Source: a virus. Taken from it: DNA of 5,100 nt. The notes below the pieces were generated by a model that saw nothing but the letters and a program-made list of their open reading frames with translations, did no database searches and was not told where the DNA came from. Every line of letters starts with the position of its first letter. Positions within the stretch are counted from its first letter, which is position 1. The translations under genes were made by a program, and so were the position numbers. The DNA is taken from IMG/VR virus record IMGVR_UViG_3300034033_000029. One strand, given 5' to 3'. Shown piece after piece: positions 1 to 5,100 of the stretch.

Positions 1-94
1 TAACGGCCAATAGTTTTAGACCTGGGCTTTTGACCCAGGTTTTTTTTGTTTTGTTTAAAGGGATTAAGTTGAAATTGTTTGCTAGTGCCAAATG
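1..94. repeat. Terminal redundancy of a circular genome (identical copy at 5007-5100); unit length 5006 nt
   Basis: Base-by-base comparison: 1-94 (taacggccaatag...gtgccaaatg) equals 5007-5100 with no mismatch. An ORF runs continuously across the junction. Confidence 0.97.
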
Positions 95-836
95 GATTGG
101 CAGAGAGAAAGCCCTGGAGTTCTTTATTAACGTAAGAGCCGGATGCTATGAACACGGCTAGAACATTGCGAAATTGACTCTCTGAGAGAGAAGACATTTG
201 TTCTTGACTTGTGATATCGATACCGAATCGTTTTTGGAGCATGGTATTGATAGAGTTATCAACGCCCATTGATAGCAGTAATTGACTGCGTTTGAATTTA
301 TCGGTAGATGTAATTATATTGTTTAGGATGACCTTCGTTTCCTCTTCGGTCTTTTTAATTTTTGCAGCCGCGGAAGGAAGGGTAACTTGGTTAAAGTTTT
401 TATTATTGAGTCCGAACTGACGATCGGAAATAATTTTGTTGGTATCAGTTGAATACCGAGAGGCACCAGACGATATTTCGGACGATTTGATACTAGCATC
501 AGCAGATATTTTTGAGGCTTCGAGTTGAATATCTTGGCCTCGTTTTTGAAGTGCGCGATCAGCGTTACGATTGATAGAATCCGCGAGATTAACATTGCGG
601 GAAGCATTGCCGAGTACCTGGCCAGCGCCGGAAGTAGAACTACCGCCGGAAGCTGATGAGCCGTAAAATTCCTGGGGAGTAAGGCCACGGGACTTGGCCA
701 TATCCCAGTCATATTGAGAACGTTCTTTGTAAGAGCGATTGTCGATCTCGGCGCCGCGTTTCGCATCCGATCGACCAAGAGCTGAGTCGAATATTTTGGC
801 GCCAGCGGCACCAAGGATAGATGAACCAAAGAACAT
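1..836 (-). CDS. H: DNA pilot / minor spike protein H-like, 285 aa; the 5' 836 nt are here and the CDS continues across the circular junction to TAA at 4985-4987
   Basis: ATG at 836..834 directly follows the TAA (839..837) of the upstream gene. I checked every codon from 836 to 3 and found no in-frame stop. The frame continues through 5006 down to 4988 (..TIGRYNQSRPN) and then reaches TAA. The N-terminus MFFGSSILGAAGAKIFDSALG is Gly/Ala-rich like remembered phiX174 gpH (MFGAIAGGIASALAGG...). There is a Gly/Ser-rich tract (GSSASGGSSTSGAG) and Q/N/K-rich helical-looking segments. It is the last gene after F and G, as in phiX174. It is absent from the ORF track only because it runs off the window edge. 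Confidence 0.8.
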   Translation of the reverse strand, partial: MFFGSSILGAAGAKIFDSALGRSDAKRGAEIDNRSYKERSQYDWDMAKSRGLTPQEFYGSSASGGSSTSGAGQVLGNASRNVNLADSINRNADRALQKRGQDIQLEASKISADASIKSSEISSGASRYSTDTNKIISDRQFGLNNKNFNQVTLPSAAAKIKKTEEETKVILNNIITSTDKFKRSQLLLSMGVDNSINTMLQKRFGIDITSQEQMSSLSESQFRNVLAVFIASGSYVNKELQGFLSANPFGTSKQFQLNPFKQNKKNLGQKPRSKTIGR

Positions 837-1388
837 TTAGCTAACCGCGTTTTGCATGGTTGGGGGTTTAACGGCAAGCCGTTGAACAGATATTTGTCCC
901 GTTGCTCGAGCAGTAAGAGCGGAACTAGCATCAAGAGCTATTCCGAAGAACAGAGGGCGACCGAAATAAGTGTCGCCACTGACCAGGTTAGGAACCATTA
1001 TTAATTCATCAATTGAATTAAATATGGGGATTACATAGACCTGGTTGACATCATCATCAGCGCCTGTGATCGAGGCTGGAGCGTAACCGATGATTAGATG
1101 AGATGCGATATCGACGAGAGTCGTTTGTATATCGAGAGATGCTTTTACGCGGTAAGGAGCGTTATCACCGATAGGCTCTTGCATATAAACACCTATGGCT
1201 TCACGGTAGCCAGCGGTAATAGTAGCGAATTCACCGACTGCTGCATCCGCAACGTCAGAATGAACAGCTGTTTTTGCATTGACGAGAATGTTACCAGCCG
1301 ACCGAACTGTTTCAGTTGGCCAGGTGAGCTTCGCGGCGAGGGAGTTTGTCCAGATACCATCGCGTTGAATATTTTTAGGAGCGCTCAT
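837..1388 (-). CDS. 183-aa beta-rich structural protein in the gene-G position (putative major spike protein; function assigned by position only)
   Basis: ATG 1388..1386 overlaps the F stop as ATGA (1385-1388). TAA 839..837 abuts the ATG of the H-like gene. The composition looks beta-strand-rich, with no hydrophobic helix. The size (183 aa) is close to phiX174 gpG (175 aa). I cannot see convincing sequence similarity to gpG by eye. Confidence 0.7.
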   Translation of the reverse strand: MSAPKNIQRDGIWTNSLAAKLTWPTETVRSAGNILVNAKTAVHSDVADAAVGEFATITAGYREAIGVYMQEPIGDNAPYRVKASLDIQTTLVDIASHLIIGYAPASITGADDDVNQVYVIPIFNSIDELIMVPNLVSGDTYFGRPLFFGIALDASSALTARATGQISVQRLAVKPPTMQNAVS

Positions 1389-2680
1389 AACATTTTACCG
1401 CCTTTGGGAAATTCCTGGTCTTTACCACCTGGTCGGGGGTAGCTTTCATCGACGAGCCCGGACATATATGAGTCCATAGAATCGCCGATAGGTTGTGTTG
1501 ATGATTCTTTGAAGAAAACATCGACCATGTAATCATCGAGAGATTGAGAACGAAAGGCACTTTTGACGCGGGTAGCATCTTTAGCTTCCGCTTGAGTAGT
1601 AGGCACCAGCATGTAAGGAAAACTATCACGAATGTCGATAGAGTTTCCGATAACATCGTGGTCGCTACGCCATTGCCAACCGGCGGGTAAGTAGCCGAGT
1701 TGAGTGGTAACGCCATTTTGAATAACATCTTTGATTTGTACAGGTTGTGGCCGAGCCGTAGAGAGATATTCGGGATCGGCAGTCATTTCGAACCAGTCGA
1801 GATTGTCCTTGGCCAGCGGCATACAGCCTTCAATAGTAGAGGCGAAACGGACAGTAAGTAGAGTAACCAGAATACAGTGTTCGGGTGCTACAACACCCTT
1901 GATTTTGTGATTGACGCTGAAGTCAAATAGCGATTGCCATTGCCCGAGGCTTGCGCCGTCGGTAGCTGGAATTTCGCGAGGATTTACGCCGACTTCAACT
2001 TGATCGAGCATGATGGGTACCTGGTCAACTTCGCGCGAGCCGTCACCTTTCCATGTTTCTTTTACAAGTTCCATCCAGCGATTATAGGATAGTACATCGC
2101 GTTTCATTGCGGAACGAAAACGGCCTTGTACTTCTGCGAGATTGCGAATGTCGATAGCTGAAGCGACAGAAACCTCATGATCAGGGGTTGCTCCTGGTGA
2201 GGAATCGAAGCGACAACGATTCCATGCTTTAGATAGAGGTACAGCTTTTACGCCGTGATTGCCGATATCAGCTGCGAGGTAATCGGCGTTTTCAGGCCAT
2301 TTGTACCACTCGTTGACACAGCGTAGATAAGCATCCTGGTAGAATTTGTAGTAATTGGCGAGTACTGCGCCACTTGAACCGATACCGAGAGAGGACCAGT
2401 CGATTTGCGAACTAACGACAGGTGGAGTTATTGCTGTAGCTGGCCCTTCTTTGACATAGTCAGTGAATTCAGGCCAGACCCAACGGAGAGGAACCATAAA
2501 CGTAGCGAGGTGAGCATTGATACGCATCACGTCACGTTCGCGTAGGGCTTCGAGCCGAACCGAACCGCTGATATCGACGTTCATGCGTTCGCCAGGCATT
2601 AGCATTTGCTGCCTGAGACAGTTAACCCGACCGATTTTGCCGGTTTTCAGAGTGTGCCCACCGCGATTAGTTCTGCTCAT
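1385..2680 (-). CDS. F: Major capsid protein F (Microviridae, phiX174-type, 431 aa)
   Basis: Several blocks line up with remembered phiX174 gpF (426 aa). GKIGRVNCL..MLMPGERMNVDISGSVRLEAL matches GQIGRLITI..VIAGDSFEMDAVGALRLSPL. FMVPLRWVWPEFTDYVKEG matches FYVPHRHVYGEQWIKFMKDG. SLGQWQS...VAPEHCILVTLLTVRF matches SLGQFSG...FVPEHGTMFTLALVRF. Its length is phiX-like, well below my recollection of ~530-560 aa for gokushovirus VP1. Confidence 0.96.
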   Translation of the reverse strand: MSRTNRGGHTLKTGKIGRVNCLRQQMLMPGERMNVDISGSVRLEALRERDVMRINAHLATFMVPLRWVWPEFTDYVKEGPATAITPPVVSSQIDWSSLGIGSSGAVLANYYKFYQDAYLRCVNEWYKWPENADYLAADIGNHGVKAVPLSKAWNRCRFDSSPGATPDHEVSVASAIDIRNLAEVQGRFRSAMKRDVLSYNRWMELVKETWKGDGSREVDQVPIMLDQVEVGVNPREIPATDGASLGQWQSLFDFSVNHKIKGVVAPEHCILVTLLTVRFASTIEGCMPLAKDNLDWFEMTADPEYLSTARPQPVQIKDVIQNGVTTQLGYLPAGWQWRSDHDVIGNSIDIRDSFPYMLVPTTQAEAKDATRVKSAFRSQSLDDYMVDVFFKESSTQPIGDSMDSYMSGLVDESYPRPGGKDQEFPKGGKML

Positions 2681-2789
2681 TTTTTGTTTGCCTGTTTAAT
2701 GGTTTCAGCAACATCCTTGGGAAAACGACTAGATCTGCTCATTTTTTATTTGCCTGTTTCATAGTTTCAGCAACATCCTTGGGGAAACG
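2666..2789. repeat. Tandem direct duplication, 2 x 62 nt (2666-2727 and 2728-2789), 56/62 identical
   Basis: Position-by-position alignment gives mismatches only at 2667, 2671, 2686, 2698, 2701 and 2722, against 2729, 2733, 2748, 2760, 2763 and 2784. It duplicates the D-tail / ATGA / F-head junction. Confidence 0.95.
2677..2742 (-). CDS. 21-aa micro-ORF MSRSSRFPKDVAETIKQANKK in the gene-J position, created by the 62-nt tandem duplication
   Basis: ATG 2742..2740 overlaps the D-like stop (ATGA, 2739-2742). Its TGA 2679..2677 overlaps the F start (ATGA, 2677-2680). Net basic (6 K/R against 2 D/E). Whether it is translated is not proven. Confidence 0.45.
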   Translation of the reverse strand: MSRSSRFPKDVAETIKQANKK

Positions 2790-3218
2790 ATGTGCCGAGG
2801 GTTCACCCCCGTAACCACCTGAATAAGCGATTACGAGGGACATTAATTGTTGCACCGACATGTCTTTGACCTCATGAGTGCCGAGTATACCTGACGCGGC
2901 GTCTGCGTCAAATGTATCTGGTGCTTTGGTACAGGCTAACAGCCTGTTTACGGGTGCTACTACTTCTGCGATAAGGGCAGCAACATATTGACCTGGTAGA
3001 GGGAGTGCCGGCATTCCGGCGATAGTCATAGATACCTCGGCCACTGATGCGATAATTGACCGCATTTGCCTAGCCTGATCAGGTGACCAATATTCAGCCT
3101 GAGTGAGTATATCCCAGTGATGTTCATCGATGCCGTGGCCTTTGTGAAGGGTAGTGTATTTGTTTTCATTTTGAGCGAGTATTTGTGCGCCATGTTGAAA
3201 TGCCTTATGGATGTCCAA
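2739..3218 (-). CDS. D: External scaffolding protein D-like, 159 aa, TTG start
   Basis: Residues 68-96 GMPALPLPGQYVAALIAEVVAPVNRLLAC (nt 2931-3017) align with remembered phiX174 gpD GYPRFPAPVEFIAAVIAYYVHPVNIQTAC. The size is similar (159 against 152 aa) and it sits between A and F. TTG at 3218 is the only start after the in-frame stop at 3231-3233, and it is preceded by AGGAG (3232..3228) with a 9-nt spacer. It overlaps the Rep 3' end by 14 nt. Confidence 0.85.
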   Translation of the reverse strand: MDIHKAFQHGAQILAQNENKYTTLHKGHGIDEHHWDILTQAEYWSPDQARQMRSIIASVAEVSMTIAGMPALPLPGQYVAALIAEVVAPVNRLLACTKAPDTFDADAASGILGTHEVKDMSVQQLMSLVIAYSGGYGGEPSAHRFPKDVAETMKQANKK

Positions 3219-4587
3219 TTTCGTTTGCTCCTATTTTAATAGATTTTACTCGTAGTTTTTCACGAGGGAAGATTGTGCCGATGAAAGTATTAGCGATTAG
3301 GGCCTTTGTATCAGAGTACCCGATTTGCTCGGGGAGGAGTTGACTTACCCAATCGTAGAATTGAGATGAATCCATCCTGTCTGGTCTCGCTCCACTTCGA
3401 ACGCTCGATAGCATCTTCGTGAAGGTGCTGGAGTTGCTTGTGATTAGTTCGCTCAAAGTGAGTTGCTTCTGCCTGAATTTCATCAAGTAGAGTTGACGTT
3501 TCGCCACGGAGCGCAGTAATCCGAGAGGCACCATATGGATCCTCATTAGAAAAAGGTTCGTAGTGCTGCTCGGCGCTCTCCAGGTCAGTGCTTCGACGGT
3601 CATTTGATCGAGTTGACTCAGAGCTGCTCGGAGGGTGTTTATCCCGAGATTCCTGGTTGCTTTCATTCGGTGATGCCATTCTTTGTGCTCCTTAGATAGA
3701 TATTTAGTGATGTAGAATCCCGATGTCCTCGGGGTGCTTACTTTCATTGGCCGCCCTGATTTATCGAGTGGGAGACAGAATTGGTGATTGGTTTGATAGA
3801 TATCGGCAACGTGTCTAAAGTAGAGAGCTGGCGATAAATGCGGTAAAGACCATCCCCATAAGGTACGCATTGGTAAACATTCATTGTGTTTGCGGTTGGC
3901 TGGATTTCTGATCCCTTTGTTTGGGCAAGTTCTCCAACTAGGAGGAATTGCCCTGAGCCAGATAATAAAATGGCCGTGATGATGCTCACGACTTTTGCCA
4001 TGCTCGATAACTCCTGCGTACGTAACATACTGAGATTCGCTCCGATAGGGCGGTTTATGGGCTGGTGGTTCGCCGAGTTCCTTACAAACTATATTGACGA
4101 GCCGCCTGATGTATTTTCTGAATGCGCGGCCATCTTGCCATAGTTTTTTGGGGTCTGTCAATTGGGGGTCAACTGTGAGTGTAACGAAGAACGGATACCA
4201 TTCATCCTGGCGTTTTTCTTCTGCTTCCTGTCCGATTCGCCAAGCCCAATTTGATTTTCTGACTACGTCAGCCTTGTGGGACATATTTTTGAGGAAGATT
4301 TTTTCATCCTCGTTATGATTTAGAACGTCAGTCCGGAGACCGAGTTCTTGTTTTTTGTCTTTTAAAGACATTCCAGGTTCGATACCGACCTGGGTTAGTG
4401 TTTGGGGGTAAGTAAGAATTCCAGAATCAAGAATGTCGTGGAGTTCTTCGGTGATGGTATTGATTGTAATTTCATCGACTTTGTCAGAGCGATGTGAAAG
4501 TAAAAGATTGGTGCGCATTTGCGCCCAATATTGTTGAGATTTATTGGAGAATTTTTGTTGTATTTGATCGAGATATGATTTAGACAT
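3205..4587 (-). CDS. A: Rolling-circle replication initiator (gene A type, HUH endonuclease), 460 aa
   Basis: Motif I is FFVTLTV (4171-4191). Motif II is HHHGHFIIW (3958-3984). Motif III, with paired Tyr, is YITKYLSK (3691-3714), compared with remembered phiX174 gpA YVAKYVNK. ATG at 4587..4585, TAA at 3207..3205. Confidence 0.95.
   Translation of the reverse strand: MSKSYLDQIQQKFSNKSQQYWAQMRTNLLLSHRSDKVDEITINTITEELHDILDSGILTYPQTLTQVGIEPGMSLKDKKQELGLRTDVLNHNEDEKIFLKNMSHKADVVRKSNWAWRIGQEAEEKRQDEWYPFFVTLTVDPQLTDPKKLWQDGRAFRKYIRRLVNIVCKELGEPPAHKPPYRSESQYVTYAGVIEHGKSREHHHGHFIIWLRAIPPSWRTCPNKGIRNPANRKHNECLPMRTLWGWSLPHLSPALYFRHVADIYQTNHQFCLPLDKSGRPMKVSTPRTSGFYITKYLSKEHKEWHHRMKATRNLGINTLRAALSQLDQMTVEALTWRAPSSTTNLFLMRIHMVPLGLLRSVAKRQLYLMKFRQKQLTLSELITSNSSTFTKMLSSVRSGARPDRMDSSQFYDWVSQLLPEQIGYSDTKALIANTFIGTIFPREKLRVKSIKIGANEIGHP
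3311..3679 (-). CDS. Overprinted 122-aa hydrophilic ORF inside the 3' half of Rep; candidate internal scaffolding protein (gene B analogue)
   Basis: ATG 3679..3677 is preceded by a perfect AAGGAG (3693..3688) with an 8-nt spacer. The protein is acidic, Ser/Glu/Arg-rich and lacks hydrophobic stretches. Its size and nesting (ending 106 nt before the Rep stop) resemble phiX174 B (120 aa) nested inside A. No sequence similarity to B is recognised. Confidence 0.6.
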   Translation of the reverse strand: MASPNESNQESRDKHPPSSSESTRSNDRRSTDLESAEQHYEPFSNEDPYGASRITALRGETSTLLDEIQAEATHFERTNHKQLQHLHEDAIERSKWSETRQDGFISILRLGKSTPPRANRVL

Positions 4588-4608
4588 ATTTGTATTTAGG
4601 GATTAGTA

Positions 4609-4624
4609 GCGCGCTTATGCGCGT
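4609..4624. other. GC-rich hairpin gcgcgc-ttat-gcgcgt flanked by direct GATTAG repeats (4601-4606, 4629-4634)
   Basis: CGCGC/GCGCG 5-bp stem plus a G:T closing pair and a 4-nt loop, 22 nt upstream of the Rep ATG in virion sense. It is the only GC-rich block in an AT-rich region. Confidence 0.45.
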
Positions 4625-4710
4625 GAGAGATTAGAGTTTTGAAGTATAGCTGTTTGGACAATGAAAGATTATTGATAGAAGCTATAGGAGAGAGTGTTGG
4701 TATAGGTTAT

Positions 4711-4739
4711 TTGTATATGATATGTCGGATTTTTATAAA
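4711..4739 (+). promoter_or_regulatory. Sigma70-like promoter for the + strand ORF: TTGTAT (4711-4716), 17 nt, TATAAA (4734-4739)
   Basis: Hexamer match and 17-nt spacing read directly from the sequence. The -10 element lies in the loop of a 5-bp inverted repeat, GTCGG (4723-4727) / CCGAC (4742-4746). Confidence 0.4.
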
Positions 4740-4796
4740 TAGCCGACGATTATTTGATAGTGAGTTTTTGAGTTGAGAGTAAAGTGAATACTCACT

Positions 4797-4804
4797 AAGA
4801 GGAG
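4797..4804 (+). promoter_or_regulatory. Shine-Dalgarno AAGAGGAG, 7 nt upstream of ATG 4812
   Basis: Read directly from the sequence. It is the strongest SD in the whole genome. Confidence 0.6.
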
Positions 4805-4811
4805 AGATTTA

Positions 4812-4988
4812 ATGAATGATTGTGTTGAGATTATTTTGCATGATAGTGAAGTTGAACGCCAGTATGGCGGGATTTATACGCTACAGATTCCTTTGAGCGT
4901 AATAATGGTAGCCCTGATTGGACAGGGCTTTTGTGGATATGATAAGGAGAAGAATTGTTCTCAGATTATTTTAGATTTAGAGAGTTAG
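4812..4988 (+). CDS. 58-aa ORF on the strand opposite to all other genes; hypothetical small membrane-type protein
   Basis: ATG 4812 to TAG 4986-4988, hand-translated as MNDCVEIILHDSEVERQYGGIYTLQIPLSVIMVALIGQGFCGYDKEKNCSQIILDLES. It has a strong SD, an upstream promoter-like element and a downstream intrinsic terminator. The central hydrophobic stretch is LQIPLSVIMVALIGQGFCG. It was not in the supplied ORF track, whose shortest listed ORF is 60 aa. Confidence 0.55.
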   Translation: MNDCVEIILHDSEVERQYGGIYTLQIPLSVIMVALIGQGFCGYDKEKNCSQIILDLES

Positions 4989-5100
4989 TTAGGCCGAGAT
5001 TGATTATAACGGCCAATAGTTTTAGACCTGGGCTTTTGACCCAGGTTTTTTTTGTTTTGTTTAAAGGGATTAAGTTGAAATTGTTTGCTAGTGCCAAATG
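4985..5100 (-). CDS. H: 3' end of the same H-like CDS, seen intact in the redundant right-hand copy (stop TAA 4985-4987)
   Basis: Same frame as 1-836 after removing the 94-nt redundancy. The C-terminal peptide is ...FKQNKKNLGQKPRSKTIGRYNQSRPN, then stop. Confidence 0.75.
   Translation of the reverse strand, partial: FGTSKQFQLNPFKQNKKNLGQKPRSKTIGRYNQSRPN
5007..5100. repeat. Second copy of the wrap-around redundancy (same as 1-94)
   Basis: Identical to 1-94. This is a linear representation of a circle, not a biological repeat. Confidence 0.97.
5026..5053 (+). terminator. Rho-independent terminator on the + strand (also present as 20-47 in the redundant copy)
   Basis: The 7-bp stem acctggg/cccaggt has a 7-nt loop and is followed by eight T. 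It lies 38 nt downstream of the ORF58 stop. On the - strand the hairpin is preceded by A8 and not followed by a T-run, so it is unidirectional. Confidence 0.7.

Follow-up and report, generated by a model that had tools for sequence, protein, structure and literature searches.

In the genome of an uncultured microvirus, the ORF listing places a micro-ORF of 21 codons between gene D, which encodes the external scaffold, and the capsid gene F. This is the slot that gene J can occupy, and the question raised by the locus is whether the micro-ORF is a new J-like gene, a functional gene of another kind, or a by-product of the event that created it. The window, which is the whole stretch of 5,100 nt of DNA that was analysed (IMG/VR record IMGVR_UViG_3300034033_000029), represents a circular microvirus of 5,006 nt with a phiX174-type external scaffold D. 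The virus belongs to a large uncultured marine/metagenomic family. The coordinates of the features are listed in Table 1.

Table 1 Features of the D/F junction and of the two genes that it connects, with positions in the window.
Feature	Coordinates	Strand	Description
External scaffolding protein D homologue	2739..3218	-	159 aa, TTG start, AGGAG Shine-Dalgarno, ends ...RFPKDVAETMKQANKK; conserved C-terminal tail, predicted helical
Repeat unit 1	2728..2789	-	Last 16 codons of the real D, then TGA overlapping ATG, then redundant F head (micro-ORF codons 1-5, MSRSS)
First ATGA overlap	2739..2742	-	D stop and micro-ORF start codon
Chimeric micro-ORF of 21 codons	2677..2742	-	MSRSSRFPKDVAETIKQANKK; head from F, tail from D; proposed role as translational relay
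Repeat unit 2	2666..2727	-	Redundant copy of the tail of D (codons 6-21 of the micro-ORF, RFPKDVAETIKQANKK), TGA that overlaps the ATG of the real F, F codons 1-5 (MSRTN)
Second ATGA overlap	2677..2680	-	Micro-ORF stop and F start codon
CG microhomology	2664..2665	-	Directly after unit 2; same CG at 2726-2727 and 2788-2789 (from reading the sequence)
Major capsid protein F	1385..2680	-	431 aa, starts MSRTNR, basic N-terminal arm MSRTNRGGHTLKTGKIGR; Pfam Phage_F, E 1.7e-23

Both flanking genes are what the preliminary description took them to be. The identity of F is given by its match to Pfam Phage_F. D matches the Pfam family gpD (PF02925) with 27 bits, where the cutoff is 25, and PHROG 1386 with an E-value of 5e-16. 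Comparison of the D profile with the PDB found phiX174 gpD (1TX9/1AL0) at an E-value of 1.6e-6. The AlphaFold model of D matches 1AL0/1CD3/1TX9 with TM-scores of 0.63/0.68, and the top 7 Foldseek matches are all chains of phiX174 gpD. By homology of its sequence and of its predicted fold to gpD, D is a phiX174-type external scaffolding protein.

The D/F junction is built of two 62-nt units that stand head-to-tail. Tandem Repeats Finder reported a repeat at 2664..2790 with a period of 62, 2.0 copies, 90% matches, 0 indels and a score of 212. Direct comparison of units 1 and 2 in virion sense, which is the minus strand, showed identity at 56/62 positions, and the duplication was correctly described in every detail. 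Identity collapses abruptly beyond both outer edges, where the flanks are unrelated. A CG dinucleotide is common to the three unit boundaries (2789-2788, 2727-2726 and 2665-2664), and this microhomology is likely the breakpoint of a duplication or of an illegitimate recombination. D, the 21-aa ORF and F form three linked frames, joined through the two 4-nt ATGA overlaps, as had been noticed at the outset. The period of 62 nt does keep these frames, as was also claimed, but it represents no special coincidence, for 62 equals 2 mod 3, which has a one-in-three chance in any duplication that spans the ATGA.

Across the family, the D/F junction takes several forms. In 21 of 28 distinct genomes of the family, the D stop directly overlaps the F start; of the others, 5 have a J-like gene, one has a non-coding spacer and one has the duplication. 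The direct overlap is found in all the nearest relatives (the sister genome L001, and also L012, L008, L032, L033 and L037). The J-like gene is a basic ORF of 35-50 aa between D and F (L011, L013, L028, L035 and L036), and in the Vibrio phage vB_VpP_WS0699 the same slot is occupied by the J-type protein gp07. These genomes bear out the view that the D/F slot is a position of J. The comparison of one against two units in related genomes, suggested together with the preliminary description, found a single junction elsewhere and the duplication only in this virus; the repeat was absent from all the other 27 distinct family genomes. Since the relatives have a single junction and the nearest of them lack J, the duplication is a terminal-branch event in a lineage that was already J-less. 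The event is placed on the terminal branch also because, among 5.8 billion proteins, there was no relative of D or F with an identity between about 80-86% and 100%. A megablast search with the whole window found no close phage relatives in GenBank, and a tblastn search with D found only distant pequenoviruses and the Vibrio phage. A scan of JGI metagenomes with D found 4 loci only, with no close relatives, and a degenerate pattern of the novel duplication junction had 0 matches in IMG/VR. A protein search with the J-like ORF of L011 gave no candidates, since too few words of 5 residues were in common. The J slot is evolutionarily labile in this D-bearing microvirus family. With such lability, one may ask how DNA is packaged in most members, which have no J; the candidate for neutralising the DNA is the basic N-terminal arm of F. 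The context of the J slot is perhaps more useful than the duplication itself. The idea that the J-like genes of the relatives were themselves born by junction duplication is unsupported, as only repeats of 12-16 nt at chance level were found in the junctions of those genomes, and ancient events of this kind would be undetectable.

The explanation that we favour, and consider probable, is a lineage-specific duplication of the 62-nt D/F junction in a J-less phiX174-like microvirus, in which the ORF would serve as a coupling relay for F and its peptide would have no function. The ancestral junction was a single ATGA, where the D stop overlapped the F start, and it would have been doubled at the CG microhomology, either by slippage or by illegitimate recombination. 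A duplication of 2 mod 3 length leaves D and F intact and inserts a 21-codon ORF between them. This new ORF starts at the duplicated ATGA, continues in the frame of D through the second copy of the D tail and stops at the second ATGA. It would take over the initiation region that the ancestral F had, so that it would be translated by ribosomes that finish D or that start de novo. Ribosomes that terminate the micro-ORF on the F start codon would then restore the termination-reinitiation coupling of F. The duplication was most likely tolerated by the virus, with the ORF handing ribosomes over from D to F.

F may depend on this coupling because its Shine-Dalgarno sequence appears to be only weak. 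The regions upstream of F and of the micro-ORF are A-rich and have a weak Shine-Dalgarno-like CAGG, compared with canonical AGGAG/AAGGAG sites for D and the B-like gene. The upstream sequence aaacaggcaaaYaaaaa is common to the micro-ORF ATG and the F ATG, and the first 9 nt are also the same. Overlapping stop and start codons (ATGA/TAATG) couple translation in bacterial operons and at the D/J boundary of phiX174. The junction resembles these systems in its 4-nt ATGA overlaps and in the apparently weak Shine-Dalgarno sequence downstream, and stop/start overlaps are also present at F/G in the same genome and at D/F in 21/28 family genomes. It differs in that two overlaps are chained via a spacer ORF of 21 codons, for which two termination-reinitiation events are predicted. 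Among RNA-level signals, the junction has no significant fold (z +0.65), no enrichment of terminators or promoters and no Rfam family. Programmed -1 frameshifting at an AAAAAAT run, a candidate that came from reading the sequence, was dropped; the A-run is not conserved, and L001 and L006 have CAAAAATGA and CCAAATGA, respectively.

Tandem duplication across a gene boundary, which gives chimeric small ORFs, is a general mechanism of gene birth. The duplication described here is similar, for it lies head-to-tail across a junction, has microhomology at the breakpoint and brings the 5' end of the downstream gene together with the upstream gene's 3' end in one ORF. It differs in its length of only 62 nt and in its occurrence in an ssDNA phage of 5 kb, whose packaging limits are tight. 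Because the product consists of the terminal helix and five residues only, it is unlikely to have a new function. If the relay is true, this junction is a natural example of a compact genome, with overlapping and coupled genes, that absorbed a junction duplication. Only duplication lengths of 2 mod 3 spare D, F and the coupling, and the observed length is in that class. Genomes with one unit and with two units would form a simple system for finding how far termination-reinitiation can be chained.

The six differences between the copies are exactly those that had been claimed, with four in the tail (TTC/TTT, ACT/ACC, ATG/ATT and AAT/AAC) and two in the head (TCT/ACT and AGT/AAT). Read in the frame of D, the tail copies differ at third codon positions only (4/4 differences), and 0/32 first or second positions differ. 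Outgroup polarisation assigns 3 synonymous and 0 replacement changes to the redundant tail. The P-value for this pattern is 0.009-0.02 for the tail alone and 0.06-0.13 for the whole micro-ORF, the split between the two being post hoc. All 5 changes on the redundant copy give residues that are seen in real D tails or F heads of the family (P 0.04-0.10). At the site of the I/M difference, both residues are common in real D tails (19% and 49%, respectively). The two head differences are at positions 4 and 5, which are variable in real F heads, and no change is seen at M1, S2, R3 or R6. The pattern, which is statistically weak with P of about 0.01-0.13, hints that the sequence of the peptide is constrained. 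Such constraint is not expected of a pure relay, except where each copy had diverged as part of a real gene in one of two parental genomes.

Unequal recombination between two relatives that diverged by roughly 10% explains the substitution pattern equally well as constraint. A second explanation, which we regard as possible though not as the leading one, is that the two units came from two co-infecting relatives about 8-10% apart and that recombination, unequal or illegitimate, joined them at the CG microhomology. This origin is compatible with the relay, and an equivalent route would be a duplication in place and, after it, a homologous exchange with a relative that had diverged. Two parents would account for tail differences at third positions only, without any function of the peptide, and both the I/M difference and the location of the head differences on variable F positions fit such an origin. 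Up to the join, each 'redundant' part would have served as the D tail or F head of a working gene, and the event could therefore be recent. The preliminary description had read the divergence of about 10% as evidence against a recent event. That part of the claim is unsafe because unequal recombination of diverged co-infecting relatives gives such divergence at once. However, no candidate parent was found in the databases, in line with the gap in D/F identity given above, nor was the junction pattern found in IMG/VR. Intramolecular slippage is also mechanistically simpler, and the statistics for both copies being functional are weak (P 0.01-0.1).

The peptide is most likely not a J protein. 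The J protein of phiX174, WS0699 gp07 and the J-like ORFs of the relatives are like the micro-ORF in being small net-positive ORFs between D and F, with a start that overlaps or abuts the D stop and a stop that overlaps or abuts the F start. The micro-ORF differs in that it derives wholly from the duplicated D tail and F head and is found in one lineage only. J proteins are strongly basic with almost no acidic residues, whereas the peptide has 6 K+R and 2 D+E over 21 aa, which gives a net charge of +4 and a net charge per length of 0.19. In the J-like ORFs of the family, which have 15 K+R each, the net charge is +11 to +13 and the net charge per length is 0.23-0.29; in phiX174 J the latter is 0.32. 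J proteins also have a hydrophobic or aromatic C-terminal motif that binds the capsid. None of the motifs of J and J-like proteins (LWYVGG, YYTGG in the Vibrio phage, GNSWY and MPNLYG) is found in the peptide, which has no aromatic residue after F7 and ends in ...ETIKQANKK, identical to the D tail. The absence of the J motif had been noticed before. The peptide had no match in Pfam at E<=10, a single non-significant match in PHROG (phrog_37238, a family of unknown function, E 0.25), and no match by blastp-short, even at E<=100, to the five J-like ORFs and WS0699 gp07. The proposal of a newborn J-like peptide is not supported by the low charge, by the lack of similarity to J or by the nearest relatives, all of which have the direct D/F overlap without J. 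No selection is needed for the micro-ORF to be open because, after 5 random substitutions, it would remain open with a probability of 0.82-0.87. The peptide is most likely a short-lived by-product without a function of its own.

A functional peptide, kept by purifying selection, could mimic the C-terminal helix of D as a free molecule and modulate the assembly of procapsids or the release of the scaffold, or it could be a first step to a replacement of J; we consider this unlikely. Despite 3 nucleotide changes, the protein sequence of the redundant D tail matches the inferred ancestral tail at 16/16 residues, which favours a function. Across the family, the tail motif of D shows strong conservation (L 112/118, P 112/118, V 89/118 and N 87/118) and is therefore probably an interaction surface. 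The ORF lies at the slot of the J-like genes of the relatives with the same overlap layout, and from the initiation region of F it is predicted to be produced at roughly F-like rates. On the other side, the micro-ORF is seen in one lineage only, and the selection statistics are marginal and based on the post-hoc split. The 21 J-less relatives evidently do without any gene at the D/F site, and a two-parent origin accounts for the same pattern. The lack of similarity to J-like or J-type proteins, the C-terminus without an aromatic or hydrophobic motif and the low net charge count against a function as well. Similarly unlikely is that the peptide is translated and kept by selection as a free copy of the D C-terminal helix that tunes procapsid assembly or scaffold release, a small gene reborn by junction duplication after the loss of J. 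A functional peptide would make this junction one of the rare documented cases in which a gene of an ssDNA phage was born by junction duplication.

The duplication is real in the biological sample. Another contig, L007 (JGI sample 3300034044, Ga0373973_06641, 3,709 nt), has 3 differences from the window and an identical duplication, and further contigs are on record with the same D and F proteins. The repeat is not an assembly artefact because this second, independently assembled contig has it in identical form, while the 3 differing sites lie elsewhere. Assemblers can generate short tandem repeats, but such artefacts are exact copies, whereas the copies found here differ at 6/62 positions; D and F are also both intact and in frame. 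The preliminary description had also read the divergence of about 10% as evidence against an artefact. That the repeat is an artefact of assembly or of a chimera, or a minority variant of a transient kind, is rejected as very improbable. Another reading, in which the micro-ORF is not a duplication product but what decay has left of an ancestral J gene, is effectively refuted by the repeat structure. J-like genes are found at the D/F slot in 5/28 family genomes and in the Vibrio microvirus, but the adjacent D tail and F head, at 90% identity, account for every base of the micro-ORF. The micro-ORF is similar to none of the J-like ORFs, and in the sister genomes no spacer separates D from F.

A search for a hidden J elsewhere in the window found the micro-ORF as the sole small ATG-started ORF with at least 27% K+R. 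Basic stretches in the window correspond to the N-terminal arm of F, the tail of H and two unexplained alternative-frame stretches inside F. The others are one alternative-frame stretch inside A and an alternative-frame ORF inside H.

The window spans a complete microvirus genome, a 5,006-nt circle whose ends overlap exactly over 94 nt (1..94 = 5007..5100), and its minus strand carries all the genes. The F product is a Pfam Phage_F match (E 1.7e-23). The D product, of 159 aa, scores 27 bits against Pfam gpD (cutoff 25) and E 5e-16 against PHROG 1386, and its family profile matches phiX174 gpD in the PDB (E 1.6e-6). The top seven Foldseek matches of its AlphaFold model (pLDDT 75) are phiX174 procapsid and free gpD chains, with TM 0.63/0.68; the duplicated tail is predicted, at low confidence, as a terminal helix (residues 147-158). 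The homology of D and F therefore places the genome in 'Suborder I / Family 1' of Kirchberger et al. (PMC9239249), among the D-bearing microviruses, but at a large distance from all cultured phages. The closest GenBank phage matches, Eel River pequenoviruses and a Vibrio microvirus, have about 31-36% D identity. More than 300 homologues of D and more than 350 of F are present in the protein collection, mainly from marine and coral metagenomes, and the range between about 80-86% and 100% identity is empty. The 122-aa ORF within gene A mirrors the internal scaffold gene B of phiX174 in position and size. D begins 14 nt before gene A ends; its start codon (3216..3218, minus strand) is TTG in this virus and in its sister L001, and ATG in most relatives.

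Features of the genome, and small ORFs of its relatives
Feature	Position	Strand	Description
Repeat unit 1	2789..2728	-	56/62 identical to unit 2
Repeat unit 2	2727..2666	-	56/62 identical to unit 1
D	2739..3218	-	159 aa, end ...HRFPKDVAETMKQANKK
Micro-ORF	2677..2742	-	21 aa, MSRSSRFPKDVAETIKQANKK
F	1385..2680	-	431 aa, start MSRTNRGG...
H-like gene	start 836, past window start, end 4985 (wrapped, 5,006-nt circle)	-	285 aa
122-aa ORF	3311..3679	-	alternative frame within replication gene A; own AAGGAG site; called as gene in L007
ORF in H-like gene	323..934	-	alternative frame; 168-203 aa by TTG start; very basic end ...LKRPKRKRRSS
13-nt repeat	13..44 (= 5019..5050)	+	GTTTTTGACCCAG, 2.5 copies at 73% identity; H-like gene 3' end
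H end to A start	4588..4984		397 nt
J-like ORF	L011:1864-2007		
J-like ORF	L013:574-726		
J-like ORF	L028:3015-3143		
J-like ORF	L035:2997-3104		
J-like ORF	L036:3001-3144		
Vibrio phage gp07	L039:2906-2995		29 aa, MARRTTKKLRKKGNKRKVPRRYYTGGQRM
Basic ORF of L008	1420-1554		44 aa, MDDRNKYTWNYVKKEWMINPKRRKASNQKKYRYSTRRPGRRHWD; upstream of gene A

The D/F junction is duplicated in tandem. Tandem Repeats Finder reports an array at 2664..2790 (period 62, 2.0 copies, 90% matches, no indels, score 212), the sole significant one in the window besides the terminal redundancy. Together with direct comparison and the ORF listing, it bears out the two units, the three linked frames and the ATGA overlaps at both the D/micro-ORF and micro-ORF/F boundaries; the six inter-unit substitutions are exactly those of the preliminary description. 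Identity collapses at once just beyond both units. The dinucleotide CG starts each unit and recurs directly after unit 2, so the breakpoint lies within a 2-nt microhomology. Every base of the micro-ORF is accounted for by the flanking D tail and F head. An assembly artefact is ruled out, as had been argued, by the identical two-unit structure on an independent contig (L007; JGI sample 3300034044, Ga0373973_06641, 3,709 nt), which encodes the exact D protein and has 3 differences from the window, 0 of them within the repeat, and by the roughly 10% divergence of the copies, unlike repeats made by an assembler. The duplication is thus confirmed as real and lineage-specific.

F and the micro-ORF both start in the context aaaCAGGcaaaYaaaaaATGAGCAGA, with no canonical Shine-Dalgarno sequence; AGGAG/AAGGAG precedes D and the B-like gene. 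Given this context, and since the family as a rule joins D to F by a stop/start overlap, a device that recurs at F/G in this genome, we infer that F translation rests largely on termination-reinitiation. Upon duplication, the first ATGA would place the micro-ORF in exactly the initiation context formerly used by F, and 21 codons on, the micro-ORF stop would fall on the F ATG, in a local context as in the ancestor. Only lengths of 2 mod 3 among junction-spanning duplications would do so. The 62-nt period does keep the overlaps and the frame, as first described, but it is a one-in-three outcome on which selection would have acted as a filter, rather than a designed feature. The junction shows neither RNA structure nor a terminator or Rfam element. 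The micro-ORF is best read, with somewhat better than even confidence, as what had been the alternative proposal, a relay that would preserve D-to-F coupling, or as a by-product; the duplication itself is a known mutational class and a known translational device.

The differences between the units were polarised with seven outgroup junctions, a procedure that relies on third positions about 50% diverged from the sister genome. The redundant copy (unit-1 F head and unit-2 D tail) has five changes, three synonymous in the tail (TTC>TTT, ACT>ACC, AAT>AAC) and two replacements in the head, at F positions 4 and 5, while the real D tail has one, I>M. For at least three synonymous changes of five over the whole micro-ORF, P is 0.06-0.13; for three of three in the tail only, a post-hoc split, 0.009-0.02; and for all five leading to residues allowed in the family, 0.04-0.10. 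Each of the four differences in the tail falls on a third position of the D frame, and none on the 32 first or second positions, a pattern that is suggestive but weak as a sign of selection on the micro-ORF. After five random hits without selection, the micro-ORF would still be open with a probability of 0.82-0.87, and its being open is therefore not evidence of anything.

The preliminary description did not consider that the units may come from two parents. They could have been joined when two co-infecting relatives, about 8-10% apart, recombined unequally. In-place duplication followed by homologous exchange with such a diverged relative would be an equivalent route, and both 'redundant' parts would then have been working gene ends until the join. 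This origin accounts, without any peptide function, for the third-position-only differences, for the I/M polymorphism (real D tails commonly have either residue) and for head changes limited to the two variable positions of real F heads; however, no parent is found among the sampled sequences. If it holds, the roughly 10% divergence no longer implies an old event.

A newborn J-like peptide, the other earlier proposal, is not supported. The peptide has 6 K+R and 2 D+E over 21 residues, versus 15 K+R in each J-like ORF of the family, and its C-terminus lacks the aromatic or hydrophobic motif of J. Pfam gives no match, PHROG a single non-significant one (E 0.25, a family of unknown function), and blastp-short none at E<=100, whether against the J-like ORFs or against the Vibrio J. 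That the peptide functions at all is unlikely. A search across the window gave no second small basic ORF. The N-terminal arm of F is more basic than the N-terminus of phiX174 F and may be a candidate substitute for J.

The D-F junctions of 28 distinct family genomes were compared. D and F overlap directly in 21 (ATGA; GTGA in L038), a strongly basic ORF of 35-50 aa lies between them in five (L011, L013, L028, L035 and L036), a non-coding 97-nt spacer in one (L029-31), and the 62-nt duplication in the window only. The five J-like ORFs have no Pfam or PHROG match, and most share with the micro-ORF an overlap with the D stop or the F start. Those of L013 and L036 are 50% identical over 42 residues (E 9e-16), those of L011 and L028 have a common G-N-S-aromatic core, and by their sequences these ORFs are evidently real genes. 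In Vibrio phage vB_VpP_WS0699, a 'hypothetical protein' (PP583598.1 gp07) encoded between the external scaffold and capsid genes has a basic N-terminus and an aromatic-GG C-terminus, RRYYTGGQRM. Measured against ...ARLWYVGG..., the C-terminus of Bullavirinae J, it appears to be an unannotated J with the phiX174-type signature. For PG19, too, a 29-aa ORF4 is listed between gpD and gpF (PMC9431446). On this evidence, the D/F slot is a true J position, and J has been lost in most of the family.

In a neighbour-joining tree of D and the N-terminal part of F, the sister L001 and then L012, L008, L033, L037 and L032 all have the direct overlap and no duplication, so the duplication is a terminal-branch event in a lineage already without J. 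A more notable by-product of the analysis than the duplication is how variable the J slot is in this uncultured family. The slot is patchy even among genomes more than 80% identical in D, which implies repeated loss, gain or recombination. Many D homologues (including P0011, P0014, P0027, P0041, P0049, P0069 and P0097) have a basic C-terminal extension of 5-15 residues that follows the common ...N-x-K ending, such as ...NEGDQKRKVKS or ...NQGTRKRTAKT; among the small number of genomes examined for it, the junction next to such an extension is variously a direct overlap, a spacer or a J-like gene.

L008, the closest relative by D (86%), has, besides its basic ORF, an additional 183-aa gene that is absent from the window. 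The alternative-frame ORF in the H-like gene could be chance or an overprinted gene, and the period of the 13-nt repeat is not a multiple of three. The stretch between the H end and the A start, whose coding strand has no convincing ORF, is presumably regulatory, or the site of the origin or of a promoter.
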